Source of the DNA: an uncultured bacterium
GTDB taxonomy: Bacteria > Fermentibacterota > Fermentibacteria > Fermentibacterales > JCC-6
Length of the DNA stretch: 64,000 nt
Direction: 5' to 3'
Assembly (NCBI GenBank): GCA_964604135.1
Contig: CAZRXU010000001.1
Coordinates: 16,535 to 80,534 of the forward strand
Shown: piece after piece, positions 5,663-34,392 of the stretch
Position numbering within the stretch: position 1 is the first letter of the stretch
How the letters are laid out: every line of letters starts with the position of its first letter
The notes under the pieces: model-generated
Databases searched by the model: none
Told to the model about the DNA's origin: nothing
What the model saw: the letters and a program-made list of their open reading frames with translations, nothing else
Program-made: the position numbers and the translations under genes

Positions 5663-5860
5663 TTGGGTCGTATTGGAACCACAGAGCTTGTGCTGATTCT
5701 TGTGGTGCTTCTTCTTCTTTTCGGGGCAAAGAGGATTCCCGACATTGCCAGGGCAGTTGGAAGATCCATGAGTCAGTTCAAGAAGGGGTTGAAAGACGTT
5801 GATATTGAGTCAGATGAAATTGGCAGGGAAGGCAAAAATAAAGAGCAGAGCGAGGAGTAA
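5663..5860 (+). CDS. tatA: Sec-independent protein translocase TatA/E
   Basis: 65 aa. N-terminal GRIGTTELVLILVVLLLLFGAKRIPDIARAVGRS is the canonical TatA TM helix plus amphipathic helix. Apparent TTG start. Confidence 0.85.
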   Translation: MGRIGTTELVLILVVLLLLFGAKRIPDIARAVGRSMSQFKKGLKDVDIESDEIGREGKNKEQSEE

Positions 5861-5866
5861 CACTTT

Positions 5867-6469
5867 ATGGCAACTGTGAGCTACAGCGCTAAGGAAATTG
5901 ACTGCAAGATTGTGTATGCAGGCCCGGGGTTGTCAGGGAAAACAACAAATGTGAAGTATATCCACGGTCAGGTTGCTTCTGATTCAAGAGGAAAGCTGAT
6001 TTCTCTTGCCGCTGGCAACGACAGAACTCTGTTCTTTGATTTCCTCCCGCTTGATTCCGGTGAGATCAACGGTTTCAAAATCCGCCTTCACCTCTACAGT
6101 GTTCCTGGTCAGGCCATGTATTCAGACAGTCGCCGCCTGATTCTTCAGGGAGTTGACGGTATTGTTTTTGTTGCGGACTCCCAGGCATCAAGAATGGATG
6201 CTAATATTGCAAGTCTCCGGGATTTGAAAGAGAATCTCCGCAATCAGAGGAGGAAGGGTGTTAGTCTTGTTCTGCAGTGCAACAAGAGAGACTTGCACGA
6301 TGCCATACCGGTGGATGAGATTGTTCGTGAACTGGGGTTGTCTCGTGTTGCGTGTCTTGAATCTGTAGCATCTGAGGGCAAAGGCGTTTTTGAAACCCTG
6401 CGCAGGGTGAGCCGGATGGTAATAGCAAGGTTGCACAGACAATTTGAAATACTGGAGGGAAGAGCCTGA
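5867..6469 (+). CDS. mglA: MglA-family Ras-like small GTPase (paralog 1)
   Basis: P-loop YAGPGLSGKTTN. Switch I RTLFFDFLPL with conserved Arg and Thr. Switch II SVPGQ (catalytic Gln). NKRD G4 motif. Near-collinear with Myxococcus MglA. Confidence 0.9.
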   Translation: MATVSYSAKEIDCKIVYAGPGLSGKTTNVKYIHGQVASDSRGKLISLAAGNDRTLFFDFLPLDSGEINGFKIRLHLYSVPGQAMYSDSRRLILQGVDGIVFVADSQASRMDANIASLRDLKENLRNQRRKGVSLVLQCNKRDLHDAIPVDEIVRELGLSRVACLESVASEGKGVFETLRRVSRMVIARLHRQFEILEGRA

Positions 6470-19413: not shown

Positions 19414-20007
19414 ATGATGTTTCTCCTTGTGCTGCTTCTTGCAGATCCCCTGTCATCAAACGAAAGCTTGTGGCTTCTGCGTGCAGGGTGTGCAGCGGGC
19501 GGCAATCCTCCAGATATGGCTTCATACCTGTATACAAGTGTTAATACTATTTCGGATATTTCACTTGCAGTTGCAACAGATGGAATCAAAGGGGGAGATG
19601 CTTCAATGCTCGTTCCGCTTGTGGCTTCTCTTGTTTCCCGCGGGGAGACAGAGCTGGCGGAAACCTGCTGGAGTCTTCGGGGAATGGAATTGCCTGCAAC
19701 CAGAAACGATCTGCTCGATGTTCTTGCGTGGTTCGGCAGGTATGAACTGTACCATGAAATGGCGTCGAATCCCTTAATTCCATCCGACATGGAAGGGAAA
19801 ATGCACAGTGATCAGTGTGGGGCTGTCTGTGCTCTGGGATGGATGAGAACCAGAAGCGACGGGATGTTTCACGGTGATGATGCTGTTTCTCCTCTTGATA
19901 TAAAGGTGCTTTCTGCGTATTTCCCATCTATCGATGCATCTGCGGAGTACATAACCACCGCTGAACTTGAGAGTGTTTTTCAGTCTTTGGGCGGAGGTTC
20001 CCGGTGA
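19414..20007 (+). CDS. Hypothetical protein (hydrophobic N-terminus, probably exported)
   Basis: The ORF track starts at 19345 and overlaps the tRNA; the internal ATG at 19414 (MMFLLVLLL...) is a more plausible start. No recognisable domain. Confidence 0.4.
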   Translation: MMFLLVLLLADPLSSNESLWLLRAGCAAGGNPPDMASYLYTSVNTISDISLAVATDGIKGGDASMLVPLVASLVSRGETELAETCWSLRGMELPATRNDLLDVLAWFGRYELYHEMASNPLIPSDMEGKMHSDQCGAVCALGWMRTRSDGMFHGDDAVSPLDIKVLSAYFPSIDASAEYITTAELESVFQSLGGGSR

Positions 20008-20633
20008 AAATCAGCGAAGCTCAGCAGAGACACCTTGAACAGTTTTCTCAAACGATAGAGATGATAAAAAGAACACAGGGGCAGCTTCCTTTCGCTCCTG
20101 CCATGGTCTCATGGGTTCGTATTATTATTCTTCCATTCAGTATCTGGGCTGGCTGGTATGCTCACTTCACCGTTATGTTCTGGTTGTGTCTTGTGGCGGC
20201 TTCAAGCGATTACATTGATGGCTGGCTGGCGAGAAAACTTAAGAAATCCAGTACTCCGGGTAAAACACTTGATATTCTGGCAGATAAACTGTTTCTCTCT
20301 GTAATGCTGATTTTTCTTGCCCGACTCGGTGTGGCAAACACCCTGCTGGCCCTTATCCCCGCGTGGTATCACATAGCTGTGGTTCTTGGTCTGCTGGTTG
20401 TTTCCTGGAGCATAAAAATACCGGTTGTAGCTATTACCACAAGTGAAAGGCTTACAATTATTCTTAGTTACGTAATGGTTCTTACAGCCGCTGGTGTGCT
20501 TGCTTATCCGGCGAAGAGCATATTTGTGAAATTGTTGTGGGTTGCACAGATACTTACGCCGATTGCTGCTATACTTGGCGTTGTGAGTTACTTCAGGTTC
20601 AGCAGAAGACTGATACAGAGGTACCTGCAATGA
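20004..20633 (+). CDS. CDP-alcohol phosphatidyltransferase family membrane protein
   Basis: Signature D-G-x2-A-R-x8-G-x3-D-x3-D present as SDYIDGWLARKLKKSSTPGKTLDILADKL. Multiple TM helices. 4 nt overlap with the upstream gene. Confidence 0.85.
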   Translation: MKISEAQQRHLEQFSQTIEMIKRTQGQLPFAPAMVSWVRIIILPFSIWAGWYAHFTVMFWLCLVAASSDYIDGWLARKLKKSSTPGKTLDILADKLFLSVMLIFLARLGVANTLLALIPAWYHIAVVLGLLVVSWSIKIPVVAITTSERLTIILSYVMVLTAAGVLAYPAKSIFVKLLWVAQILTPIAAILGVVSYFRFSRRLIQRYLQ

Positions 20634-21298
20634 TCGCTGTTCTGCTTTTTATTGTGTGCTTCTCTCCGCTTGAACTGGAGCTGGCTGGAAAACTGCCGGA
20701 AGCAGGTGCTGCCTGGCAGGAAGACGGCAGCCTGTCAGGGCAGGTCAGGGTGATGGGAAGGCTTGTGGAGGAAGCAATATACGCAGGTGACGCCAGACGG
20801 GCATTTTTGCTGGCCGGTGAGCTGGGAAGCATCTGCAACGACGCAGATATTCAGCAGTTCTGGATGGCAAGGATTGCATGGGCTTCAGGTCTTCCTGTGT
20901 TGGCTGCGGAAGAGCTGAAGCAGATGAACCCGTCGGATCCGTGGCTTCTTCACAGAGCTCTCGGATTGTCCGCATTGTTTACAGAAAACGGTGAGGTAGC
21001 CATACGAGAGCTCACAATGTCTGTTGCCGCGGCTTCCACGGCAAGAAAGGCCTTCTGGAGCGGTATAGATCTGTGTTCCGCTTATTTGAATGCTGGAAGG
21101 TATTCTGATGCCCTGCAGCTGTCCCGTCTGATAAAAGTTCGTTACCCTGGAGATGCCATGGGCGATGTGATGTACGGGCTGTGCCTACAGGTTTCAGGGC
21201 AGTTCGGAGAGTCTTCAAGAGTATTAAATTCTATAGATATGGATAATCCGGCAGCAGTTTCTCTTGCCCGGAGTATTATGGAAGGATTTGAGCAGTGA
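20630..21298 (+). CDS. Hypothetical protein, helical/TPR-like
   Basis: ATGA overlap with the CDP-alcohol phosphatidyltransferase stop. N-terminal hydrophobic segment, alpha-helical repeat character. Track ORF 20537 start rejected because it overlaps the upstream gene. Confidence 0.45.
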   Translation: MIAVLLFIVCFSPLELELAGKLPEAGAAWQEDGSLSGQVRVMGRLVEEAIYAGDARRAFLLAGELGSICNDADIQQFWMARIAWASGLPVLAAEELKQMNPSDPWLLHRALGLSALFTENGEVAIRELTMSVAAASTARKAFWSGIDLCSAYLNAGRYSDALQLSRLIKVRYPGDAMGDVMYGLCLQVSGQFGESSRVLNSIDMDNPAAVSLARSIMEGFEQ

Positions 21299-22188
21299 AA
21301 TTTATAAGAGATCTCTTTGGTAAACGAAGAGTAACCAGGGTTTCTTCCAACTGGAGCGATTTCAATTTCCCGTCTGATGTTACGGAACCAGAAGCCGTTG
21401 GAGTGTTTTCTTCTTCAGATATTTCCTCTGCGTGGTCGGCTGTTTACATGGCCAGTGTACTTCAGAATGTGTATCCCTCTATTCCGGTTCACTTTGTGAC
21501 TCACAGCAGTGTGGCCGAGCTCGCCGGATTCCTGCCGGTAACACCGCAGATGCACATATATACCGGTGACCCTGGATCAGTTGATCCCGAGATTCCAGAG
21601 GGTGTTCTTATGTTTTCTCCTCAGCCTGAAGACAGTTTGCTGCGTTTTGTGGAAAAAGCATCTCCTCTTGCGTGTGTTTCAACACAAAAAAACCCGGCTG
21701 TGAATATAATTGTTAAAATAGGATCTGATACTGTGTTACCGCATAGCATCTACGAACTGATGAAGGTTCTCAAAATGGAAGCAGATACAGCGTGGAAACC
21801 GGTAGTGCCGGGTGTTCTGGCCGAGAAGGCTTCCTCTGTTCTGTCCCCTGTGTCTCACCGCACACTGCCGTACATTCTGGCCACTGAAGCTGCAGCAAAT
21901 GTACTGGAGAAAAAACGGGCAGAAGTTCCACTTAAGATTGTTCTTGTAGACGGAAAGACTACTGTTATTCCACCGGAGACAAGTGTCGGTCTGCTGGCGG
22001 CAATGGTTGCCGGTGCTTCCGCTATGGTCACAACGGATCGGAATCTGTGGATACATGCAAGAGCTCTGGGAATACCGGTGATAGGGCTGGACAGAAAGGG
22101 AGTATTCAGCGGATGGGGAGGCGAGCCTGCACCAGGAGACACAATGTTTCTGGAGCAGTGGGCAACCCTTATCAGAGTTGGCTGGTAA
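21295..22188 (+). CDS. Hypothetical protein, divergent GT9 (heptosyltransferase)-like C-terminal region
   Basis: C-terminal VGLLAAMVAGASAMVTTDRNLWIHARALGIPVIGL resembles the GT9 donor-binding region (GNDSGPMHLAAALGxPxVALFG). The N-terminal half is not recognisable. 4 nt overlap with the upstream gene. Confidence 0.4.
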   Translation: MKFIRDLFGKRRVTRVSSNWSDFNFPSDVTEPEAVGVFSSSDISSAWSAVYMASVLQNVYPSIPVHFVTHSSVAELAGFLPVTPQMHIYTGDPGSVDPEIPEGVLMFSPQPEDSLLRFVEKASPLACVSTQKNPAVNIIVKIGSDTVLPHSIYELMKVLKMEADTAWKPVVPGVLAEKASSVLSPVSHRTLPYILATEAAANVLEKKRAEVPLKIVLVDGKTTVIPPETSVGLLAAMVAGASAMVTTDRNLWIHARALGIPVIGLDRKGVFSGWGGEPAPGDTMFLEQWATLIRVGW

Positions 22189-22193
22189 CTTCG

Positions 22194-22595
22194 ATGAAAA
22201 AGGTAATTACATACGGAACATTCGACCTGTTTCACATAGGTCATCTTAACATGTTGAAACGGGCAAAAGCTCTGGGTGACTACCTTGTGGTGGCTGTTTC
22301 CACAGATGAATTCAACACCGGAAAACACAAACAGTGTGTTTATCCATACTCTCACAGAGCGCAGATAGTTGAAGCTATTCGTTGCGTGGACGAGGTGATA
22401 CCGGAGAACAGCTGGGAGCAGAAAATTGATGATGTCAGGAAACACTCCATAGGTATTTTTGTTATAGGGGAAGACTGGGCAGGAAAATTTGATTTTCTTA
22501 AGGAATACTGCGAAGTAGTTTACCTGCCCAGAACGAAGAGCATTTCAACAACATCCATCAGGAACACGGTAAAGAACGGTAAAACGATTATCTGA
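22194..22595 (+). CDS. tagD: Glycerol-3-phosphate cytidylyltransferase (TagD/TarD family)
   Basis: MKKVITYGTFDLFHIGHLNMLKRAKALGDYLVVAVSTDEF is the HxGH cytidylyltransferase motif of the TagD family. ~133 aa. Internal start chosen 6 nt after the upstream stop. Confidence 0.88.
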   Translation: MKKVITYGTFDLFHIGHLNMLKRAKALGDYLVVAVSTDEFNTGKHKQCVYPYSHRAQIVEAIRCVDEVIPENSWEQKIDDVRKHSIGIFVIGEDWAGKFDFLKEYCEVVYLPRTKSISTTSIRNTVKNGKTII

Positions 22596-23635
22596 TGAAA
22601 CTGCTGTTCTACATTTCAAAACTCTACTCTGTTCCAGTTGTGCAGCCTCTGGTGAACGAGGCAAAGAGCAGAGAGGTGGAAGTCGCATTTTTCGTCAGTT
22701 CAAAGGTAAAGAAAGACCTTCCCCATGAAATATCGGATCTTCCGGTATTTACAAACTTGAACAGTACCAAAGCTTTCAAGCCCAACTTTGTTTTGTGCCC
22801 GGGCAATTTCGTGGATTTCCGCTTGTCGGGAATAAAAGTTGAGCTTTTTCACGGCATTGGAGTAGAGAAGCCTTCACACTACAAAATCAGGCACTTTTTC
22901 GATATGTACCTTACCTCAGGGCCGGTTGTGACCGAAAGGTTTGCACAGATGCAGAACAGGTACAGATACTTCAGAACTGTGGAAACCGGGTGGCCGAAGA
23001 TAGATCATATTCTTAAATACAACACCACAGACCTTAAAAAGAAGTACGATATACCTGCAGGCAAAAAGGTTATTCTTTATGCTCCCACGCACAGCAGAAC
23101 CATGGAGTCTGCGACTCTGCTTCTTCCTGAGATTGAAAAAACCATGGAGCCGGATGAGATATGGCTGTGCAAGCCACACGAATTCATGAGCAGATCTCTT
23201 GTAAACGGAATTGCAGACAAACAGCAGTTTCGCCTGATCACCGATTACGATATTACCCCATATCTTCATCTGGCAGATATGATGGTTTCTGACACTTCTT
23301 CTGTGGTCTACGAATTCATGGTTCTGGACAAGCCGGTTGTAACCTTCAGAACACTGGCAAGAAAAGACAAAGGTATCAACATACAGGAGCCCCGGGAGCT
23401 GAGGGCTGCACTGGACCGATCCTTTCTGAATCCTGATGAGTTCTCGAGCAACCGGAAGCGTCATCTTGATGAGGTAAATCCCAGATTAGACGGAAACATA
23501 TCAAAGAACATCATTGATCTTCTTTCCACAGTAGACCCTGAGGAACCAGTGGGAACGAGGCGGAAACCGCTGAATCTGTACCGGAAACTTCAGATTATCT
23601 ATCACAGCCATTTCCGTAAGGGATATATGCGTTAA
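22595..23635 (+). CDS. CDP-glycerol glycerophosphotransferase (TagF/TagB family), paralog 1
   Basis: ILYAPTHS ... DMMVSDTSSVVYEFMVLDKPVV motifs typical of the TagF family. 1 nt overlap with the tagD stop. Confidence 0.85.
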   Translation: MKLLFYISKLYSVPVVQPLVNEAKSREVEVAFFVSSKVKKDLPHEISDLPVFTNLNSTKAFKPNFVLCPGNFVDFRLSGIKVELFHGIGVEKPSHYKIRHFFDMYLTSGPVVTERFAQMQNRYRYFRTVETGWPKIDHILKYNTTDLKKKYDIPAGKKVILYAPTHSRTMESATLLLPEIEKTMEPDEIWLCKPHEFMSRSLVNGIADKQQFRLITDYDITPYLHLADMMVSDTSSVVYEFMVLDKPVVTFRTLARKDKGINIQEPRELRAALDRSFLNPDEFSSNRKRHLDEVNPRLDGNISKNIIDLLSTVDPEEPVGTRRKPLNLYRKLQIIYHSHFRKGYMR

Positions 23636-24483: not shown

Positions 24484-24507
24484 AAAAAATTGCCGCTTTG
24501 AGCGGTT
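24484..24507 (-). terminator. Candidate Rho-independent terminator for the minus-strand astacin/radical-SAM operon
   Basis: On the minus strand a 5 bp stem (CCGCT-caa-AGCGG) is followed by T6, then a second GC hairpin (GCCGCC-tgaa-GGCGGC). It lies ~100 nt downstream of the last minus-strand ORF. Confidence 0.3.
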
Positions 24508-24608: not shown

Positions 24609-24953
24609 TTATTGAATCAATTGCAATTCCACGACTATTTCCGTATAGGGGGAATCAGTCTTAACAGGAAAGGCCTGTACTGTAATAAAATCTCCTGATT
24701 GAATTCGCTCTGATCCGGAGATTGAGAGGTGAGCCCAAACATTGAGATGCCGACCTGCAGGATAATTACTGGGTACTTCAAGCAAATCTGTTACTACAGT
24801 GATTCCTGTTTTATCAGCAACGGAAAGCAAATGAGAGCAAACGGTAATTGAGGGTGCATCAAGCAGAGATACATCCCGAATTTCCACTCGACACATAGCT
24901 GTTGCTGGTAGCATAACCTGATTGCGCAGCAAAACTTTAACTTCGACTTTCAT
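24609..24953 (-). CDS. Hypothetical protein (114 aa), last gene of the astacin/rSAM minus-strand cluster
   Basis: ORF with AAAGG upstream of the ATG. No recognised motif; one CxxH-like stretch. Function unknown. Confidence 0.4.
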   Translation of the reverse strand: MKVEVKVLLRNQVMLPATAMCRVEIRDVSLLDAPSITVCSHLLSVADKTGITVVTDLLEVPSNYPAGRHLNVWAHLSISGSERIQSGDFITVQAFPVKTDSPYTEIVVELQLIQ

Positions 24954-25136: not shown

Positions 25137-26477
25137 CTATTCACTGTCAAGCTCCAAATGTACATTTTCGTTCTCAGTTACCAGCCAGCAGTGTCGATTC
25201 GAATGGAACAGTGTTTTTTTGGCAAAATTTGCTGCCTTGCATCCACCACGGCAGACAGGTAACCACTCGCATTGCCTGCAGTATCCACTAATATCACTGA
25301 TTTGCAGACTGCGAAAGTAATTGAGGAATCTGGAGTATTTCCAGATATAACTAAATTTCTGGTTTTTTACACTGTCTGCAGTTACGCCTTCGAAGTAGTG
25401 GCAGGGAAGCACCTCACCAATTGGGGTAACCGTACAATAGTTAAGTGCACCCCCGCATTCACTCGGTTGTGTTTGGTCAATTCTGTAGTGGGGTGGCTCA
25501 GAGAATGTATGCTCAAATTCAAGGGCTGCAATCTCAAAGGGCCAATTGCCCCTCTGCTGCAGCAGGTATGTGTATACTTCTTTTACTCTTTCAGGGGGAA
25601 GCTCCAGTGTGCTGTTACTCTTACCGCGTCCGTTGGGAATAAACGGAATCAGTCTGAATCTCTTTGCTCCAAGCCGTTGAACCAGTTTCAGCATATTCGG
25701 AATATCATCAACATTATGCATCGAGATTAGAGTTCCTATAGTAATCTCATGTCCTGTTCTGACCAGTATTTCAATACCCCTAATCGCTTGATTAAAAGCT
25801 ATTTCGCTGCCTCTGACTCTTGAATAAATCTCAGAAGTGGATCCATCCAGACTAACCTGGATATTTGCCTGAAGTATTTTCAGCTCATCTGCAATTACTG
25901 GTGTGATGAGAGTACCGTTTGTAGCGAGGCTTATGGCCAGATTATTCCTCCTTGCTGCATAGGCAAGCTGGAAAAAATCTTTGCGAATAAGAGGCTCGCC
26001 TCCGCTGAAGGTGATTTCGCGCACTCGCATGTCTCTCCACTCGTTCAGTAGAGCAAGCCCCTCCTGAGTTGACAATTCATTCTCATGCTTTTTCTCAGCA
26101 GAAACAACGCAGTGAAGGCACCTCAAATTACACTCATTTGTTATTTCCCAGAAGATTGAGTCAGGAGGAGGGGCATCAAACCAGCGCATCTTTTCTTTTT
26201 TTATCCAGAGAAGCCCACTGCTTTCAAAATCATTAACGAAGCTTATTGTACGGGTTCTTATCTCATCCTCAGATGACATAAAGAGATTACATAGTTTAGC
26301 TATGATCTCTTCAAGAGACCTGCTGCCGTTGCTCAATTTAAGCAGACATGCTGCAGCCGCATTTATTTCAATATTTTCTTCACTGTAGGGCGATAGGATT
26401 CTAACTTGTTCATCTCTCCCGTGAATCATCTTGAATGGAAAGAAGGGGTAGCACATTAAACACCTCCGATAGGGCAC
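25137..26477 (-). CDS. Radical SAM/SPASM-domain peptide-modifying enzyme with N-terminal PqqD-like RiPP recognition element
   Basis: CNLRCLHC CxxxCxxC radical SAM cluster motif at aa 116-123. GGEP-like FSGGEPL. C-terminal Cys-rich SPASM region (CGGALNYC...PCHY...GYCRQCEWLPVCRGGCKA). Residues ~30-90 (INAAAACLLKLSNGSRSLEEIIAKL...VNDFESSGLLW) match the PqqD/RRE pattern. GTG start. Confidence 0.85.
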   Translation of the reverse strand: MPYRRCLMCYPFFPFKMIHGRDEQVRILSPYSEENIEINAAAACLLKLSNGSRSLEEIIAKLCNLFMSSEDEIRTRTISFVNDFESSGLLWIKKEKMRWFDAPPPDSIFWEITNECNLRCLHCVVSAEKKHENELSTQEGLALLNEWRDMRVREITFSGGEPLIRKDFFQLAYAARRNNLAISLATNGTLITPVIADELKILQANIQVSLDGSTSEIYSRVRGSEIAFNQAIRGIEILVRTGHEITIGTLISMHNVDDIPNMLKLVQRLGAKRFRLIPFIPNGRGKSNSTLELPPERVKEVYTYLLQQRGNWPFEIAALEFEHTFSEPPHYRIDQTQPSECGGALNYCTVTPIGEVLPCHYFEGVTADSVKNQKFSYIWKYSRFLNYFRSLQISDISGYCRQCEWLPVCRGGCKAANFAKKTLFHSNRHCWLVTENENVHLELDSE

Positions 26478-26570: not shown

Positions 26571-26657
26571 GAATCACTACAAGAGAGGAAGCTTGTTCAG
26601 GATGCTTCAACAGGCAGATTGCTCAGCTGCATGACTGAAGATCAGAAAACAGTCTTC

Positions 26658-28124
26658 TTATCTTGGATTGAAACCTCCATATCTACGGGTTCCCTCGCAT
26701 CCGCAATCCTCATTTGGATCGGCAAACTCGGTTGCTCTCCAGTTTGGATTGTAACCGTATCCCATGGGTGCAGGAGGAGCATATCCGTAGTCCATCGGAG
26801 CAGGAGGGGCATACCCGTAGCCCATGGGTGCAGGAGGGGCATACCCGTAGCCCATGGGTGCAGGAGGAGCATATCCGTAGCCCATGGGTGCAGGAGGGGC
26901 ATACCCGTAGCCCATGGGAGCAGGAGGGGCATATCCGTAGTCCATCGGTGCAGGAGGGGCATATCTGTAGCCATAACCGGGCATTCTGGAGCCAGCAAAC
27001 CTGTGACCTCTACTGAAGTAATTAGGTCGTACCTCAGGATAAACCCGGTGTCTCCATATCTCAGGTTTCATGTACGGTCCAGCCATACATCCAACTGTTG
27101 GTGCTGCCGCACAGAAAATTGGTGCAGGGGGACATCTGAGCAATGGAGCAGGGGGACATCTGTGTATCGGTGCAGGGTAACATATGGGTATCGGTGCAGG
27201 GGGACACCTGTGTATCGGTGCTGGGTAACATATGGGTATCGGTGCAGGGGGACACCTGTGTATCGGTGCAGCCATACACTGCATCACCGGTCCACCGGGA
27301 CAAACAAGTTGTGGGGGACAGAAAGTGGCAATTGCGGCGATATCACCTGCACTCAATCCGGTTCTTTGACCAATAACAGCTGTGGAGTCTGTAGGTGTAA
27401 TTGTGTCAGTGCCATCAATAGAGAAGGCCGCACGCCCGTAGTGCATAACCGAGCCGTAGTCATATGCTCCGATATCATCACCATCGGTGATATGCTGGTT
27501 GAAATTGTGTTCTCGTCCGGGAATAATCTTTGCCCAGTTGATTGTGACGAACGCATTTCGATCCTCGCGGCTGTGCTCGTGCCACAAACCAAAAGCATGA
27601 CCTATTTCGTGTATTGTGTTTCCTGTTGAGCACCCACCGGCAAGTGTGATAAACTGCTCACCCCCTTGGCGGCCTACCCAGGAGCTGCAGCCGTTGCCGG
27701 GTCTGAAGGTAACAAAATCGGGGTACTGTGCTGCATTTGCAGCAGTTCTAAGAATAAAGTTAACCTGGGTATTTGCTACCCAATGGGAAATAGCATCAGT
27801 TACTCGAGTTTGATTTGGAAGAGCGTTGTCAATTGTGTAGGGAATGAGACAGTTTGGCCATCTGTAATTGTCACCGGTGATTGCAACACCATTAGCAATT
27901 TCACCACGCATCTCCTGGCGGCGGATTTCTGTTTTTCGCTCAACCTCCTCGGCAGTGCCGAGAACAATATCTCCTTCGAAGATCGCAAGTCCGTCAACTA
28001 CGGTGTATTGAACTTCCTTTGAGTAGAAAGTAGCACCGTCAATGAATGCTGTGAGCACCACATCGGAGCTGTATTGCTCCCCATAGTCTTTAACTGTGTT
28101 TTTTCCTCTTTTCTTCTCAACCAT
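26658..28124 (-). CDS. Astacin-family (M12A) zinc metalloprotease with no signal peptide, fused to a 220 aa Cys/Pro-rich and Tyr-Gly-rich tandem-repeat tail
   Basis: Extended astacin zinc-binding motif HEIGHAFGLWHEHSREDRN (HExxHxxGxxHExxRxDRD) at aa 172-190. Mature-N-terminus-like RWPNCLIPYTID. Met-turn SVMHY. Tail: three CPPAPIPICYPAPIHR repeats, then seven GYGYAPPAPM repeats. Strong GGAGG RBS. Confidence 0.88.
   Translation of the reverse strand: MVEKKRGKNTVKDYGEQYSSDVVLTAFIDGATFYSKEVQYTVVDGLAIFEGDIVLGTAEEVERKTEIRRQEMRGEIANGVAITGDNYRWPNCLIPYTIDNALPNQTRVTDAISHWVANTQVNFILRTAANAAQYPDFVTFRPGNGCSSWVGRQGGEQFITLAGGCSTGNTIHEIGHAFGLWHEHSREDRNAFVTINWAKIIPGREHNFNQHITDGDDIGAYDYGSVMHYGRAAFSIDGTDTITPTDSTAVIGQRTGLSAGDIAAIATFCPPQLVCPGGPVMQCMAAPIHRCPPAPIPICYPAPIHRCPPAPIPICYPAPIHRCPPAPLLRCPPAPIFCAAAPTVGCMAGPYMKPEIWRHRVYPEVRPNYFSRGHRFAGSRMPGYGYRYAPPAPMDYGYAPPAPMGYGYAPPAPMGYGYAPPAPMGYGYAPPAPMGYGYAPPAPMDYGYAPPAPMGYGYNPNWRATEFADPNEDCGCEGTRRYGGFNPR
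26757..26967. repeat. Tandem 30 nt DNA repeat (~7 copies) encoding the GYGYAPPAPM repeats of the astacin tail
   Basis: Unit CCCATGGGTGCAGGAGGGGCATACCCGTAG repeated head-to-tail with a few substitutions. In frame within the minus-strand CDS. Confidence 0.9.
27120..27290. repeat. Tandem ~48 nt DNA repeat (~3 copies) encoding the CPPAPIPICYPAPIHR repeats of the astacin tail
   Basis: Unit GGTGCAGGGGGACACCTGTGTATCGGTGC(A/T)GGGTAACATATGGGTATC repeated. Confidence 0.85.
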
Positions 28125-28641
28125 TGCCTCTCCTCCCGTTGAAACAGTCTTCGTTTCGTATGGATTACAAACTACCTGCAGGGCAAAAACACGGCTCTCG
28201 CACTTTCCGAACTGTCTCCATCTATCACCTCCATTCGAGTCAATAACAGTTCTTCTCTGGTATCAATTTCCAAGAATAGTTAAATCACAGTATATAGTAT
28301 ATTGAAAGCTGCTAAAATGCCTAATCACAGACATAAAATATACAATTATTCCGGCGAAATAACATATTACCATAAAAGAGACTCATAATACGAGTAACCT
28401 CCAAGTTGCTATGAAATTCAACACAAAAATACCAGGAGTGTATCTGACAATCAGTACTGTGCAGTTACGCCACAGGATTGAATAAGAAATCGTCCGGATT
28501 TGAAGAGAGAGTAACAGATGCAACAGTGGGGACATACTGAGGAATAATACGAAATAGCAACGTAATATGATGATATACGATATTGAAGCCGATTATGTAA
28601 CTGCAAATACCAGTACTTCAGCTTCCAATGTACGTTAGATA

Positions 28642-29691
28642 TCAGATGTGCCCGGACTCAAGGAGTTTTTCGAAGCCCGTGAAAACCATTTCCGGTGTAA
28701 TGCCAAAGGTGTTGTCTTCGTATTTTTCAAGACTGCTTGCAAGATAGATGTGTTGGGGCATATGCCAGGCAACCCATTTCAAGGGGTTGGTTCCAGGGCC
28801 GAATACGGTTACGGTAGGTGTTCCCACTGCAACTGCCAGGTGGTGAACACCTCCGTTGTTTCCAATGTAGACCCTGGCGTGTTTAAGCATGGCAGCTGCT
28901 TCATTGAAAGTTGTGGGAGGAGTTATCAACGGCCTGCTTTTCATCATAGAGGCCATGTGTTCAACCTTTTTCTTTTCTCCTGGTCCCCAGAGCAGAACAA
29001 CGGTAAACCCTTGCTTTTCAATAAGCATATCTGCGACAGCTGCGAAACTGCCGAAGTTCCACTGCCTGCTTCTGATTGGAGTTACAGGAGAGAACACGGC
29101 AATGCCTTTGTCAGATATACTCTTTTTATTAAGCCAGTTCTGTATTCTGTTTTCAGACTCTGGAAGCACGTGAATGTATGTGTTGTGCGGGATCTCCTGT
29201 ATTCCAAGGGGGTGCAGCAACCCGAACTTTGCTCTGGCAGAATAGATGTTGTGGTCTTTTAACTCACGGTAGTTGTAAACCCAGTTGTGTCCCTTGAACC
29301 AGCTCCATTTCTTTGTTTTGTGCCAGCCGATACGAATTCCAGCACCACTGAACAAGGTGATCTCGGCAGCACCCGGGCCGCGAGCCTGGTCTATTACAAC
29401 ATCGTAGTGCTGTCTGCGGATATTTGAGATAAGATGGAATCTGTCAATTGTGTAAGCCAGTGTTCCAGTCTTGAGCTTGTTCATCACAACAATGTTGTCA
29501 ACACAGGCATTGTTCTCAAGTATGGTTGCGTAGGGTTTTTGAACCAGATAATCAATAACAGCATCAGGGAAAGCCGCTCTCAGCGCAGGAAGGTAGCCTG
29601 TGTTAAGAAGAACATCTCCGAACGGTTTGTACTGAATAATCAGTATCTTGCTTATCTTCAGCAATCTGCAATGAGGAATGAGTTTGTTCAC
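28642..29691 (-). CDS. Glycosyltransferase family 9 (ADP-heptose:LPS heptosyltransferase-like)
   Basis: N-terminal ILIIQYKPFGDVLLNTGYLPAL and C-terminal GNNGGVHHLAVAVGTPTVTVFGPGTNPLKW are classic GT9 motifs. Confidence 0.85.
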   Translation of the reverse strand: MNKLIPHCRLLKISKILIIQYKPFGDVLLNTGYLPALRAAFPDAVIDYLVQKPYATILENNACVDNIVVMNKLKTGTLAYTIDRFHLISNIRRQHYDVVIDQARGPGAAEITLFSGAGIRIGWHKTKKWSWFKGHNWVYNYRELKDHNIYSARAKFGLLHPLGIQEIPHNTYIHVLPESENRIQNWLNKKSISDKGIAVFSPVTPIRSRQWNFGSFAAVADMLIEKQGFTVVLLWGPGEKKKVEHMASMMKSRPLITPPTTFNEAAAMLKHARVYIGNNGGVHHLAVAVGTPTVTVFGPGTNPLKWVAWHMPQHIYLASSLEKYEDNTFGITPEMVFTGFEKLLESGHI

Positions 29692-30256: not shown

Positions 30257-31015
30257 ATGAAGGCAGTCATTATAGCGGCAGGATCAGGCTCTCGTCTTGA
30301 GTCTCGGCACAATGGCATTCCAAAGACACTTCTGAAAATTGGGAAAGACAGAATAGTAGATATTATTCTTAGTTCCATACAACAGTCTGGAATTACGGAT
30401 GTGGTTGTGGTTACAGGCTATAAGGCGCAGATTCTGGAAGACCATCTTACCTCTTCAGCACCGGAATCTCTTAGTATTCAATTCTGCCGCAACCCGTTGT
30501 GGAATCTTTCAAACGGTGTTTCAGTTCTAGCTGCAGAACAGGCAGTAGAGCCTGGTGAAGAGTTTGTTCTTCTTATGAGCGATCACATATTTCAGCCTGA
30601 AATGCTGAAAATAACAGCTGATACACCTCTGGAACACAACAAGGCAGTTCTTGCCGTCGATTTTAAGCTAAACGAAATTCCGGATATCGATGACGGGATG
30701 AAGGTAAAATGTGAAATAGCTGATTCCGGCAGATACCGAATAACCAGTCTGGACAAAAAGTTCACCGACTACCAGGCAGTAGATTGCGGTATGTTTAAAC
30801 TCAACTATGGTTTTTTCGATGTACTGAAACAGTCTATTCACGATGGAAAAGATTCCCTCTCGGATGCCTGCAATGTGTATGCCCTGTTGGGTAACATGAT
30901 CGGTATCGATATAGGGGATCTGCGGTGGATTGACCTGGATACACCAGAGATGTTCGGCTTTAATGATCTAATAGACAGAATTACTGCCCATATGAGAGGC
31001 GACAGTATCCGGTGA
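30257..31015 (+). CDS. LicC/IspD-like nucleotidyltransferase (probable CDP-alcohol donor synthesis)
   Basis: MKAVIIAAGSGSRLESRHNGIPKTLLKIGKDRIVDIILSSIQQSGITDVVVVTGYKAQ resembles LicC-type CTP:phospho-alcohol cytidylyltransferases. Located immediately upstream of three TagF-like genes. Confidence 0.7.
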   Translation: MKAVIIAAGSGSRLESRHNGIPKTLLKIGKDRIVDIILSSIQQSGITDVVVVTGYKAQILEDHLTSSAPESLSIQFCRNPLWNLSNGVSVLAAEQAVEPGEEFVLLMSDHIFQPEMLKITADTPLEHNKAVLAVDFKLNEIPDIDDGMKVKCEIADSGRYRITSLDKKFTDYQAVDCGMFKLNYGFFDVLKQSIHDGKDSLSDACNVYALLGNMIGIDIGDLRWIDLDTPEMFGFNDLIDRITAHMRGDSIR

Positions 31016-32073
31016 ACACTTACTATTTCGCAAATCAAATCTACCAGTTGTCTTATGCGTGGCCGATATTCAACCGTATAGGCGGGGAGTTCATTGTAAG
31101 AAAGTACAAAACACTTCTTAAGTTCAAAAGATTCCTCAGAGGCAGCGTTAAGAGCGGCAGCGGTGCATTCCTTGGAACACCTGTAGTGAAGCGAAGGAAG
31201 CTTCGTTATGTTTCCGACTTAACAGGTGTTGTTCTTTCCCAATCCAATGCATGGGTGCGTAATGACACAGACAAGTCGAGAAGCATTTTCATTGGTCACG
31301 GCACAGGAGACAAGAAGTACGGGGGAAAGGCACACACACTTCTGAACTATCAGTATGTTTTTGTTTCCGGCCCCAAACACATGGAAAAGTTCAAAGACAG
31401 CGATCTGATATTTCCGGAAAGCAGTCTGGTGAAAATAGGGAATCTCAGGTTTGATGACTACGTAAATGGTAAACTGGACAAAAATGCAATCATGAACAGA
31501 ATGGGTGTTCCAGAAACAGACAGGGCAAGAAAAACTGTTCTGTATGCTCCTACATGGGAATGGGGCAACGGAACGCTCGAGAAGTATGCAAAACCATTCA
31601 TGAAGCAGATAACCCAAGAACACAACCTCATTATCAGACCACATCACTTCGATTCCCACAGGGTGCCAAAGTTGAAACTATGGGCAAAACTCAACGGAAT
31701 AAAAAGGGTTTACTTTTCCAATTCCAACAGAATTGCTGTTAGCGATACAATGCATGATTTTGCGGTGTCAGATATTCTTATCAGTGATACCTCTTCTGTG
31801 TTGTACGAGTATCTTATCACAGGGAAGCCAATAGTTATTGCAAACACAGATTTTTCAGGTCTGCACAACATGCCGGACACCATGAATGTAATGAAAATTG
31901 CAGACTTTTTTCGCGGTTCAGAGAAGATTCTGGATGTTGTAAACAGAAACCTGGCGTCAGACACTTCAAAGTATCTGGAAATGCTTCACAACTGCTTCTA
32001 TTTCAACGACGGAAAGTCGGTTGACAGGGCGGTGGAGTTTATAAACGGCGTAGCAGGTGAACTGAAACAATGA
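31012..32073 (+). CDS. CDP-glycerol glycerophosphotransferase (TagF family), paralog 2
   Basis: VLYAPTWEWGNG ... ISDTSSVLYEYLITGKPIVIAN. 4 nt overlap with the upstream gene. Confidence 0.85.
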   Translation: MNTYYFANQIYQLSYAWPIFNRIGGEFIVRKYKTLLKFKRFLRGSVKSGSGAFLGTPVVKRRKLRYVSDLTGVVLSQSNAWVRNDTDKSRSIFIGHGTGDKKYGGKAHTLLNYQYVFVSGPKHMEKFKDSDLIFPESSLVKIGNLRFDDYVNGKLDKNAIMNRMGVPETDRARKTVLYAPTWEWGNGTLEKYAKPFMKQITQEHNLIIRPHHFDSHRVPKLKLWAKLNGIKRVYFSNSNRIAVSDTMHDFAVSDILISDTSSVLYEYLITGKPIVIANTDFSGLHNMPDTMNVMKIADFFRGSEKILDVVNRNLASDTSKYLEMLHNCFYFNDGKSVDRAVEFINGVAGELKQ

Positions 32074-33170
32074 AGAGGATTCTTTTTGATCTGAAGAAGC
32101 AGTATTACTTCAATTCACTTTACCCCCTTTACAGAGTTATGAAGCAGGATCCCCGGTACGATCTGTGGATCAGAGCGGGGAAAGACCAGCACCGGTTTCT
32201 AGGCATGTTTATGATTTCAAACAGGTCAAGAATTCAGGATGAACTTCGTTCCAGAGGGTTTCAGGTAACAGATAGAACCTCTGGGTTTGACGGGGTCGTC
32301 TGCGGAGATGCATTAAAGAAACCTGAAAAATACGGCGATGTTCCGAAGTTTCACCTCGACCACGGAGTGGGAATAAAAACACTTCGTATCAGAAACATTG
32401 TCAGACAGAAAAACGCAAGGTATCATGTTTTCCTTGAGGGGCAGTACTGGTACGATTACATAAGGAGTCTGGGGTACGAAAACAAAGCCGATTTTTATGT
32501 TACAGGTCTGCCGAAGCTCGATCCGTTTTTTCAGTCGGGTTACTACGACAATCAAGCGCTGATAACAAGGTTGGGGCTGGATCCAGGCAAAAAAACTGTA
32601 CTATTCGCACCATCGTACAAACCAAGCTGTATTGATCACATAGGAGGCAGCATTATAAAGCTGTTGCCGGAGTACAATCTGTTGGTTAAGCTTCATCCCT
32701 ATTCATGGGGAGGGAAGTATGCACCACATTCTCAGCATAGACTATATCAGGAACTGGCCGGGAAGCACAGAGAGGTGTTTCTTGTCCCATCTGAGGAATA
32801 CGATGTATATCCCTACCTGTTTCTTGCAGATACACTTATAAGTGACACTTCCAGTGTCGTAAACGAATTTCTTGCGCTGGGAAAACACGGTATTATCTAC
32901 CAGCTGCCTCAGGGTAACCCCAGGCATTCAGACGGTATGCCGGTTCTTTCAATAGCCCCTGAAGATTGGCTCAAGGATGCCTTCCCGCATGTATCCCGTC
33001 CTGATCAGCTTGAAGATGCAGTAGAGGCCGCTGTTTTTCCCACACATGCCATGAAGCAGAAACTTGAAGAATACAGGAGGTACTTCTTTACAGGGCTAGA
33101 TGGAAAGGCTTCCGAAAGGGTAAAACACTGTATAGATTCTGTTCTGCTGGAGAAGAGTCAGCATGCCTGA
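32070..33170 (+). CDS. CDP-glycerol glycerophosphotransferase (TagF family), paralog 3
   Basis: VLFAPSYKPS ... LISDTSSVVNEFLALGKHGIIY. 4 nt overlap with the upstream gene. Confidence 0.82.
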   Translation: MKRILFDLKKQYYFNSLYPLYRVMKQDPRYDLWIRAGKDQHRFLGMFMISNRSRIQDELRSRGFQVTDRTSGFDGVVCGDALKKPEKYGDVPKFHLDHGVGIKTLRIRNIVRQKNARYHVFLEGQYWYDYIRSLGYENKADFYVTGLPKLDPFFQSGYYDNQALITRLGLDPGKKTVLFAPSYKPSCIDHIGGSIIKLLPEYNLLVKLHPYSWGGKYAPHSQHRLYQELAGKHREVFLVPSEEYDVYPYLFLADTLISDTSSVVNEFLALGKHGIIYQLPQGNPRHSDGMPVLSIAPEDWLKDAFPHVSRPDQLEDAVEAAVFPTHAMKQKLEEYRRYFFTGLDGKASERVKHCIDSVLLEKSQHA

Positions 33171-34392
33171 AAACTACAAAATTGCCTACTGGCTAAGAAC
33201 AGATATCCAGCACTTCGCCCATGTTCAGCACATCTATGAAAACCTTGGCGGTGTGATACTAACAAAGAATCCAGATATTTACAGCTATCTCAGCGAGAAG
33301 TATCCTGAACTTGGAGATGATCTAGTTCTGGTAAAGAATTCAACAGAAGCAAAGAAACTGCTGAACCGGTTTGGCACAAAGATAGTGGTGTACACAGGTT
33401 TTCAGATGATTTTCTGGGGGTATTCTGTTCAGGTGTTTCACGGCTCATCCGACAAACACTACTTGCTGAACCACAGGAGGATTCTGCTTTACGACCTGCT
33501 TCTTCTTCCAGGAAACAGGCATATGGAGAGAATAGCAGGTGCATACAGACTGAAACATCCTGAAAAATTCAAAGTTGTAGGGTATCCCAAGTTTGACAAA
33601 CTGGTTAATGGAATCATTACAGAGAAGCCGCTTTTCGACAACGGAAGACCCACGATTCTGTATGCTCCTACCTGGATAACACAGGGTTCCGGCTCAAAGC
33701 TGAAGTTTTCAGAATACGGCGAGAGTTCGCTACCTTTGTGGGGAACAAAACTGATAAAGGCAATCGTACCCCGCTGGAACCTTATAATCAAGTACCACTC
33801 GCGTATATATGAAAGCCACAGGGAAATATACGACGGCATTAACAGTTGCATTGCAGACCTTAACGCCGGGGATCGCGTTAAAGTTGTAATTGACTCCAAT
33901 ATAACAGAGTATATGAACCAGGCTGATCTGATGATCTCCGATATATCGGCGGTGTGCTACGAGTGGTTCCACACAGGCAGACCAATCGTGTTTGCAAATC
34001 CTTCACCGGAACACTATCGACCTTCAGATGATCAGCTTTCAAACACTTACGCGTGGCAGGCCGGAGATGTTCTTTACGCTGAAGAAGACATAGTTCCGAT
34101 TTTGCAGCGAAACATTGCTTCAGACAGCCATGCCGATATTCGTAGGAAACTGCTTGAACACTCGTTCTACATGCCAGATGGTCACGCAGGTGACAGGCAA
34201 CTGGCAGAGATCGTTAAATTCTATGACAGTGTCGTAAGTTTTAGCAAACTGCGAATGGTGCTGCACAACATCGGTGTGTTTGCAAAGGACACTGTACGAC
34301 ACGCCAGGGAAAAACGGAACAGACCTGTTACTTCCGCCATCTCTGATGAAACCAGACCCACTGTTCCGGAGCATCAAGAATCCACCTGCTGA
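33163..34392 (+). CDS. CDP-glycerol glycerophosphotransferase (TagF family), paralog 4
   Basis: ILYAPTWITQG ... MISDISAVCYEWFHTGRPIVFAN. 8 nt overlap with the upstream gene. Confidence 0.82.
   Translation: MPENYKIAYWLRTDIQHFAHVQHIYENLGGVILTKNPDIYSYLSEKYPELGDDLVLVKNSTEAKKLLNRFGTKIVVYTGFQMIFWGYSVQVFHGSSDKHYLLNHRRILLYDLLLLPGNRHMERIAGAYRLKHPEKFKVVGYPKFDKLVNGIITEKPLFDNGRPTILYAPTWITQGSGSKLKFSEYGESSLPLWGTKLIKAIVPRWNLIIKYHSRIYESHREIYDGINSCIADLNAGDRVKVVIDSNITEYMNQADLMISDISAVCYEWFHTGRPIVFANPSPEHYRPSDDQLSNTYAWQAGDVLYAEEDIVPILQRNIASDSHADIRRKLLEHSFYMPDGHAGDRQLAEIVKFYDSVVSFSKLRMVLHNIGVFAKDTVRHAREKRNRPVTSAISDETRPTVPEHQESTC

Follow-up and report, generated by a model that had tools for sequence, protein, structure and literature searches.

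A periodic Cys-Pro array in the tail of an astacin-type protease as the likely substrate of an adjoining radical SAM-SPASM enzyme

The window considered here is a 64,000-nucleotide stretch of DNA from an uncultured bacterium of the Fermentibacterota (lineage JCC-6; GenBank assembly GCA_964604135.1, contig CAZRXU010000001.1, positions 16,535 to 80,534 of the forward strand). It carries a cassette of three genes encoding, in this order, an astacin-type metalloprotease with a long repetitive C-terminal tail, a radical S-adenosylmethionine (SAM) enzyme with PqqD and SPASM domains, and a protein of 114 residues. The tail of the protease begins with a periodic array of Cys-Pro units, which, judging from sequence comparisons, is very likely the substrate of the enzyme encoded next door. 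The elements of interest, in coordinates of the window, are the following.

26658..28124, minus strand: astacin gene (M12A, LegP-like), 488 aa; open reading frame with Pfam and NCBIfam matches
27870..28124, minus strand: N-terminal pro-segment (aa 1 to approx. 85); from the AIFEGDIVLG motif and its invariance in homologues
27324..27863, minus strand: astacin catalytic domain (aa 88-267); Pfam match
27060..27320, minus strand: Cys-Pro array (aa 269-355), 10-11 C-x-x-x-P units, mostly of 8 residues; from unit spacing and DNA repeats
27060..27092, minus strand: terminal junction motif GCMAGPYMKPE, family consensus G/S-C-[LWAM]-[AP]-G-P-[YWDT]; from comparison of homologues
26979..27059, minus strand: non-repetitive basic/aromatic spacer of 27 aa (aa 356-382); read from the sequence, not conserved among homologues
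26745..26978, minus strand: Tyr-Gly-Pro decapeptides (aa 383-460), seven APPAPM[G/D]YGY units; from Tandem Repeats Finder and codon counts
26661..26744, minus strand: conserved C-terminal module NWRATEFADP...GGFNPR; from comparison of homologues
25137..26477, minus strand: PqqD-radical SAM-SPASM enzyme, 431-446 aa, with start at GTG 26477 or at ATG approx. 26456; Pfam matches
24609..24953, minus strand: 114-aa beta-sandwich protein of the secretin-pilotin fold (AspS/ExsB); confident fold match

The catalytic domain of the protease corresponds to a Pfam Astacin match over residues 88-267 (E = 1.4e-45; 155.7 bits, cut-off 22.5), and the N-terminal half of the protein matches the NCBIfam LegP family (E = 3.6e-94; 314.9 bits, cut-off 300). 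The zinc motif HEIGHAFGLWHEHSREDR and the Met-turn SVMHY (as GSVMHY) comply with the M12A pattern HExxHxxGxxHExxRxDR plus SxMHY, the four structural Cys residues of the astacin domain are retained, and the closest solved structures are those of hatching enzymes, BMP1, meprin and astacin itself. In the pro-segment, for which AlphaFold2 gives pLDDT values of 74-82 over residues 20-72, the AIFEGDIVLG motif occupies residues 47-56, with E50, G51, D52 and I53 invariant among astacin homologues. This motif includes the FxGD sequence, which we take to be the 'aspartate switch' of pro-astacin zymogens, so that the 488-residue protein is probably made as a zymogen. A hydropathy test revealed no signal-like hydrophobic N-terminus in the window astacin, nor in any of 44 array-bearing proteases (0/44), so that the protease tail and the cytoplasmic Fe-S enzyme can meet.

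The array Cys residues are found at positions 269, 275, 283, 291, 299, 307, 315, 323, 331, 338 and 346, with spacings of 6, 8, 8, 8, 8, 8, 8, 8, 7 and 8 residues, and the units read CPPQLV, CPGGPVMQ, CMAAPIHR, CPPAPIPI, CYPAPIHR, CPPAPIPI, CYPAPIHR, CPPAPLLR, CPPAPIF, CAAAPTVG and CMAGPY. The description given in an earlier note on this DNA, namely 11 Cys in 78 residues and then seven decapeptides, is thus confirmed, and the interval 26745-27320 encodes residues 269-460 exactly. C269 probably belongs to the catalytic domain, leaving 10 array Cys, because it is invariant across LegP-like astacins, including those with Cys-free tails. At the DNA level Tandem Repeats Finder identified in the array a 48-nt unit (2.6 copies, 96% match, 27148-27271) or, alternatively, a 24-nt unit in 6.3 copies over 27121-27271, and in the decapeptides a 30-nt unit (7.3 copies, 89% match, 26755-26972, score 345). 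The term 'near-perfect' previously applied to both repeats is apt for the 48-nt unit and generous for the 30-nt one. The junction motif ends the array in most astacin, thermolysin (M4) and subtilisin (S8) versions discussed below, with a strict match wanting in a few.

The number of units was counted in relatives with conserved flanks, as had been suggested in the earlier note, and found to be 17, 19 and 20 in P0002, P0314 and the L073 protein, three alleles of one astacin with 99-100% identity in the remainder of the sequence, a count for which repeat misassembly remains conceivable. A young tandem repeat is also present in the array at locus L007 (51 nt, 4.3 copies, 98%) and an old one at L012 (24 nt, 70%), so that Cys-Pro arrays appear to expand and contract recurrently. 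Low-complexity queries proved unproductive for array searching: a phmmer search with the 95-residue array against 1.84 billion representative proteins yielded 59 weak matches, nearly all to spurious open reading frames over simple DNA repeats, the real ones being only P0270 (S8 protease, array, Tyr-rich tail and FDPNYKG) and P0287. The long open reading frames over the repeats of the window itself, at 26619-27629 (plus strand; 336 aa), 26642-26998 (minus), 26714-27016 (plus), 27061-27303 (minus) and 27143-27376 (plus), are by-products of the repeats and not genes.

The radical SAM enzyme gives Pfam matches to PqqD (residues 34-90), a recognition element (RRE) for peptides that are made on ribosomes and modified after translation (RiPPs), to Radical_SAM (residues 111-265) and to SPASM (residues 341-404). 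It carries a CNLRCLHC sequence and the full 7-Cys SPASM motif; C326, G339, C344, C385, C388, C394, C398 and C415 are invariant in its orthologues. Its gene lies approximately 180-200 nt downstream of the astacin gene on the same strand, and this adjacency is kept across different genomic neighbourhoods, bearing out the co-occurrence with a radical SAM enzyme that had been invoked for the tail. The named maturase families compared by their NCBIfam cut-offs, which included MftC, PqqE, AhbD, StsB, PapB, ScmE/F, ACGX and anSME, all score below cut-off (AhbD, the best, 195.9 bits for a cut-off of 500; MftC, 176.7 for 265; PapB, 97.1 for 340), and the chemistry is therefore not transferable by homology. 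The closest PDB entries are PqqE (the best match), SkfB and CteB, all of them peptide-modifying enzymes, and anSME is a weak match (E = 4e-6). The PADLOC defence models returned no match for the astacin or the 114-residue protein, and only a generic viperin-like similarity for the radical SAM enzyme. No credible open reading frame of at least 20 aa that could encode a small precursor was found between or around the three genes of the window; in Chlorobium-type loci the gap between the astacin and radical SAM genes is just 58-76 nt, which leaves no room for a hidden precursor gene.

The generality of the arrangement emerged from a profile search for radical SAM orthologues in a genome set that represents each GTDB species once. 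Each of the 30 full-length orthologues (36-60% identity) is preceded on its own strand by a gene whose end lies 55-475 nt upstream, and in 29 of the 30 loci this gene carries a C-terminal array of the form (C-x-[PAR]-[ASGKL]-P-x1-4)n, with 6-23 Cys spaced by 6-9 residues (mode 8). Within the units only Cys and the Pro at +4 are conserved; those of the S8 type read C-[YR]-R-A-P. Radical SAM enzymes with identity of 33% or less have no array-bearing neighbour. The N-terminal part of the array-bearing protein, or head, is an astacin in Chlorobiaceae, Thermodesulfobacteriota and others, a thermolysin (M4) with FTP propeptide in Methanolobus spp., Anaerolineae, a cyanobacterium, Bacteroidales and a leptospire relative, a subtilisin (S8) in Methanosarcina, Brocadia, Zixibacteria and others, and a papain (C1) in Bryobacteraceae. 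In a metagenome-assembled genome of Methanoregula (L033, 2411-3163), the head is missing altogether, and a stand-alone array protein of approximately 220-250 aa with 23 CPPKP/CPPLP units is encoded directly upstream of the radical SAM orthologue. Since the head varies among astacin, M4, S8, C1 and none, the array is the one element that all versions share. Two more S8 examples came from further look-ups, as did L153, a radical SAM relative of 37% identity without an array; in L031 (Thorarchaeota) only the terminal C-W-P-G-P motif is found, alone at the C-terminus of the protein and beside an orthologous radical SAM gene. In complete astacin-, S8- and helix-hairpin-helix-type M4 proteins, the array is followed by 84-178 aa. 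The M4 versions end in a domain of approximately 85 residues with a weak similarity, under cut-off, to helix-hairpin-helix/DUF4332 (E = 0.0017), as seen at L008 (approx. 5730-6004) and at the other Methanolobus loci L016-L019, L024-L029 and L034.

A complementary view was obtained by scanning metagenome contigs with the astacin domain as query and classifying the loci that contained the complete gene and at least 1 kb downstream. Four loci encode a tail with a Cys-Pro array; a radical SAM gene adjoins all four, all four have a homologue of the 114-residue protein, and an ATP-grasp gene is found in none. A long Cys-free repeat tail is present in 30 loci, with a radical SAM gene in none of them, an ATP-grasp gene in 29 and a homologue of the 114-residue protein in 20; the single exception without ATP-grasp has a propeller-like tail. 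Short or globular tails account for 10 loci (radical SAM, 0; ATP-grasp, 0; 114-residue homologue, 3). The Cys-free tails consist of repeats of approximately eight residues of the form x-[E/D]-T-x-K-E-x-x, with a GALPFAxxTPH motif and a coiled-coil end (L010, 3462-6271; L077-L148), and are the kind of tail found in most LegP-like astacins. The ligase encoded beside them is of the microviridin/graspetide type, as its MvdD pre-ATP-grasp domain and RimK domain imply. Graspetide ligases cross-link Thr, Lys and Glu/Asp residues. The ATP-grasp-linked astacin tails look like an undescribed and very abundant class of protease-fused graspetide-like arrays. The co-variation of repeat type and neighbouring enzyme type on one scaffold is what would be expected if the tails are substrates of the enzymes. 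The earlier note had named as a refuting outcome a generic low-complexity linker with no co-occurring radical SAM enzyme; for the Cys-Pro array this was not what was found, in that astacins with unrelated repeat tails are accompanied by another maturase (ATP-grasp in 29/30) rather than by nothing. A further tail type was observed at L151 (2719-4870), where an astacin carries (PTRPTxPTF)n repeats and a Y/G/D-rich tail without Cys, with a gene for an APH-family phosphotransferase after it and two ABC exporter genes before it; the PTRPTxPTF tail and the APH kinase may be a third tail-enzyme pairing, seen at this one locus only.

The second repeat of the window protein, the Tyr-Gly block, had been proposed along with the Cys-Pro units as a possible target of radical SAM-catalysed cross-linking. 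Pairwise comparison of the seven decapeptide copies revealed 55 synonymous and 10 nonsynonymous codon differences, so that the amino-acid sequence is held by selection at the protein level and does not reflect recent duplication alone. In the closest relative of the window protein, ASPAPM replaces APPAPM in nearly all copies, a pattern indicative of concerted evolution. Some of the astacin, S8 and C1 proteins have a Y/G/D/P-rich segment between array and C-terminus, and no Tyr-Gly block was found in the Chlorobium-type astacins, in any of the M4 versions or in the Methanosarcina S8 versions. A similar Y/G/D-rich block is present in P0115, the astacin without Cys array or radical SAM enzyme whose downstream neighbour is an APH-family kinase. 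A role of the Tyr-Gly units as a conserved target of splicease-, PqqE- or cyclophane-type chemistry was rejected because they are missing from most radical SAM-linked tails and found in a radical SAM-less one; the block is instead a lineage-specific low-complexity filler. The earlier interpretation of the tail was in this respect half right, being partly supported, for the Cys-Pro array and not for the Tyr-Gly block. The C-terminus, NWRATEFADPNEDCGCEGTRRYGGFNPR, is unlike the repeats, as had been noticed, and it is conserved: astacin versions share the pattern [DN]W.x.xE[YF]xDP ... F[DN]P-x1-4-COOH, S8 versions end in the related form GEYxxFP...GPF[DN]Pxxxx, and the module is absent from all M4 versions.

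A chance neighbourhood of array and radical SAM gene is unlikely, given their strict pairing across phyla and domains. The explanation that we favour, with a probability of about 0.6 for the whole of it, is that the radical SAM enzyme modifies the array Cys residues, that the array is most likely retained as a stapled stalk, and that the Tyr-Gly block is a separate feature. The astacin would be made in the cytoplasm as a zymogen with a tail composed of a C-x-x-x-P octapeptide array closed by G-C-x-A-G-P. The radical SAM enzyme would bind the tail through its RRE domain and iteratively modify the array; the best guess is that each Cys would become thioether-linked to a nearby carbon, as in sacti-/ranthipeptides and QhpC. 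When RRE-SPASM enzymes act on Cys substrates, a thioether cross-link is the most common result. Alternatively, the Cys might be oxidized to formylglycine, a chemistry that is considered because Pro stands at +2 in many units, like in the sulfatase motif. Once modified, the array would form a covalently stapled stalk, rich in proline, resistant to proteases and adjustable in length, that remains part of the protein between the head and the C-terminal module. The stalk is favoured because no unit positions other than Cys and Pro are conserved, the Cys recur at a fixed period, the array lies internally and a transporter is missing from the cassette; the differing unit numbers of near-identical alleles and the want of globular structure in the AlphaFold2 prediction of the tail are in line with it.

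Several observations weigh against this proposal. Adjacency of array and enzyme is, by itself, no proof of a substrate relation. The units offer no acceptor of the kind usual in known ranthi- and sactipeptides (Asp, Glu, Asn or Thr). From the single motif of L031 and the array-less L153, the minimal target could be smaller than the array and consist of the junction motif. Heads that are exclusively proteases fit a self-processing precursor at least as naturally as a stalk, and the stand-alone 250-aa array of Methanoregula looks more precursor-like than stalk-like. Finally, the AlphaFold2 model of the full-length astacin is poor (mean pLDDT of 52), so that the appearance of the tail in it, with pLDDT of 32-45 and neither secondary structure nor globular fold, is weak evidence for disorder.

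The best of the competing explanations is that of a multi-core RiPP precursor, as had been proposed in the earlier note, in which the fused protease or another one cuts the modified array into small functional peptides, the protease serving as both leader and processing enzyme. Four protease classes serve as heads of a constant array with a constant radical SAM enzyme, as would be expected if the head merely cuts; a stand-alone array protein exists (L033), the unit copy number varies between identical flanks, the ATP-grasp-type tails parallel multi-core graspetides, and the astacin of the third tail type adjoins ABC exporters. However, the units are contiguous, with only Cys and Pro conserved and no spacers or conserved cleavage or recognition sites between them, and their sequence drifts freely between lineages; the array is internal, with the 84-178 residues that follow it being conserved sequence in the complete astacin-, S8- and helix-hairpin-helix-type M4 proteins; and no transporter or immunity gene was found in the radical SAM-type cassettes examined. 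On balance we consider a multi-core precursor unlikely, although it deserves to be kept in view. A more general version of this idea would see an undescribed class of modular protease-tethered RiPP arrays, interchangeable at the C-terminus of cytoplasmic zymogen proteases from at least four catalytic families, with C-x-x-x-P, [E/D]TxKE and possibly PTxPT units matched to radical SAM-SPASM enzymes, MvdD-type ATP-grasp ligases and possibly an APH kinase as maturases, and with the activated protease chopping its own tail into dozens of identical bioactive peptides. If this speculative and rather doubtful scenario were true, one gene would provide precursor, leader and processing enzyme.

It seems improbable that the repeats are a proline-rich hinge and that the radical SAM enzyme acts at a single site, either the G-C-x-A-G-P junction or the E-[YF]...F[DN]P module, where it might form, e.g., a PqqE-like Glu-Tyr link. 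The one C-W-P-G-P motif of L031 beside an orthologous radical SAM gene, the best PDB match being PqqE and the occurrence of an E-Y/F plus F[DN]P-COOH module in both astacin and S8 versions would be consistent with such an action, but the C-terminal module is missing from all M4 versions, the Cys periodicity is tightly conserved, and the full array, present in 29/30 loci, is lost where the neighbour is an ATP-grasp enzyme. An array acting as a metal or redox element (disulfide hinge, metal or Fe-S site) next to a radical SAM enzyme of unrelated role, to which the resemblance to the CPPCP hinge of immunoglobulins and the four structural Cys kept in the astacin domain, hinting at an oxidizing destination, might point, is very hard to reconcile with the strict array-radical SAM pairing across phyla and domains, with the peptide-recognition (PqqD) domain of the enzyme and with single Cys residues 8 positions apart in a polyproline context, which would be poor chelators.

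RRE-bearing radical SAM-SPASM enzymes are usually assumed to act on small leader-containing peptides. In ranthi- and sactipeptide systems (SCIFF/CteB; freyrasin PapA/PapB, with six CxxxD motifs) an RRE-radical SAM-SPASM enzyme is likewise encoded beside a Cys-repeat substrate, but the known substrates are 40-60 aa long, with an N-terminal leader and Asp/Thr or similar acceptors, whereas here an 80-180-aa C-x-x-x-P array with no obvious acceptor and no leader lies inside a 450-740-aa protease. Of the features expected for precursors of these classes, adjacency to the maturase is found in 29/30 genome loci and 4/4 metagenome loci; the small size (less than approx. 100 aa, with leader or follower) is not, the array being part of a 488-aa enzyme in the window and only the L033 protein being protease-free. 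QhpD acting on QhpC, and anSME, provide examples of SPASM radical SAM enzymes that modify Cys in a protein that stays functional, as proposed here. QhpD makes thioethers, and anSME makes formylglycine at C-x-P-x-R. Their substrates have one or few sites, whereas here there is a periodic array; its units have Pro at +2 in many copies, like the anSME motif, but no Arg at +4. In borosins (OphMA-type) a catalytic domain and a RiPP-like core are found in one polypeptide; there the fused domain is the modifying enzyme, whereas in the present case it is the protease, and the modifying enzyme is encoded by a separate gene.

Iteration of a single maturase over tandem short motifs, as suggested here, is found with plesiocin-type graspetides and with TvgA/TvgB, in which a SPASM maturase acts on repeat motifs to yield poly-cyclopropylglycine (PMC9062424). 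These precursors are small, stand-alone and leader-bearing, in contrast with repeats fused behind an enzyme. The Cys-Pro tails have their direct sibling in the ([E/D]TxKE)n astacin tails of the ATP-grasp type. A metallopeptidase and a SPASM radical SAM enzyme also occur together, along with a motif at fixed distance from the C-terminus, in the FxSxx-COOH / zincin metallopeptidase / radical SAM-SPASM peptide-processing systems (Haft & Basu 2011, following the account in PMC7159879). They differ in that peptide and peptidase are encoded by separate genes, the motif is FxSxx, no Cys-Pro array is present and they are set within vWA-MoxR/AP-ATPase conflict systems. Astacins, RRE-radical SAM-SPASM enzymes and Cys-rich repeat substrates such as those of freyrasin and SCIFF are each familiar, and the nearest precedents are QhpD/QhpC and anSME at the level of the protein and the FxSxx-COOH systems at that of the system; the fusion of a periodic C-x-x-x-P array to proteases is found in none of the closest known systems. 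No curated family of Pfam or NCBIfam covers the radical SAM enzyme or the tail, and no description of protease-fused Cys-Pro arrays was found in the full-text literature searched, which did not extend to papers in subscription journals; they are unmentioned in the nearest literature, on the FxSxx-COOH systems (PMC7159879) and in the graspetide survey (PMC8939145).

The sole conserved candidate substrate of the radical SAM enzyme is, in the present case, a periodic Cys-Pro array within full-size proteases that belong to four unrelated families and occur in Bacteria as well as in Archaea, and at hundreds of metagenomic loci the astacin scaffold carries another type of repeat, paired with an ATP-grasp ligase of the graspetide type. 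These findings point to a general and overlooked RiPP-type decoration of proteases, or to the making of peptides from them. RiPP genome mining would gain a class of precursors that size filters discard, and enzymologists a new substrate motif for radical SAM enzymes. Cultured carriers of the system include Chlorobium phaeobacteroides DSM 266, several Methanolobus spp. and Methanosarcina spp.

The third gene of the cassette tracks the class of the protease: the 114-residue protein accompanies the astacins, a prodomain paralogue the S8 proteases, and nothing conserved the M4 versions. The window protein starts with MKVEVKVLLRNQ and lacks a hydrophobic leader, a signal peptide and a lipobox Cys, which makes it a cytoplasmic representative of a fold that is known from lipoproteins of the outer membrane; no secretin gene is present in the cassette. 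It travels with the astacin and not with the type of maturase, as an astacin-specific partner that is perhaps a chaperone or an inhibitor. In the subtilisin loci the third gene encodes a protein (approx. 100-106 aa) paralogous to the N-terminal prodomain of the protease itself (33% identity, E = 3e-9; L009, 7373-7693; L015, 7259-7576; L023, 7166-7582; L040, 4797-5117; L154, 5379-5678), which, free-standing, may act in trans as a foldase or inhibitor, and with which the 114-residue protein offers a parallel.

The same cassette is found in Chlorobium phaeobacteroides (CP000492, 52768-70186; third protein of approx. 115 aa) and in metagenomic contigs with quite different flanks. In a relative that is 94% identical (L006), the contig carrying the cassette breaks inside the repeat, and the downstream part of the window's synteny is shared. 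There is weak evidence, drawn from consensus matches, that the three genes of the window form an operon, its putative boundaries being the following.

28296..28323, minus strand: promoter-like site approximately 170 nt upstream of the astacin start; weak, 9/12 consensus matches
24493..24505, minus strand: terminator-like hairpin with T-run, approximately 100 nt past the third gene; consensus scan only

G+C-rich terminator-like hairpins occur only after the third gene, the other matches being low in G+C and located inside the astacin and radical SAM coding sequences. The flanks of the cassette (20004-23635 and 30257-34392) contain genes for a CDP-alcohol phosphatidyltransferase, a cytidylyltransferase-like protein and several CDP-glycerol glycerophosphotransferase-like proteins, and a gene for a family-9 glycosyltransferase is found at 28642-29691; from its gene content, the site at which the cassette is inserted is a teichoic-acid-like or glycerophosphate polymer locus. 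In Chlorobium phaeobacteroides (L001, 3610-7468) the cassette lies beside genes for a CHAT (caspase-like) protease and a DUF900 hydrolase, a neighbourhood that is not conserved in the other loci.

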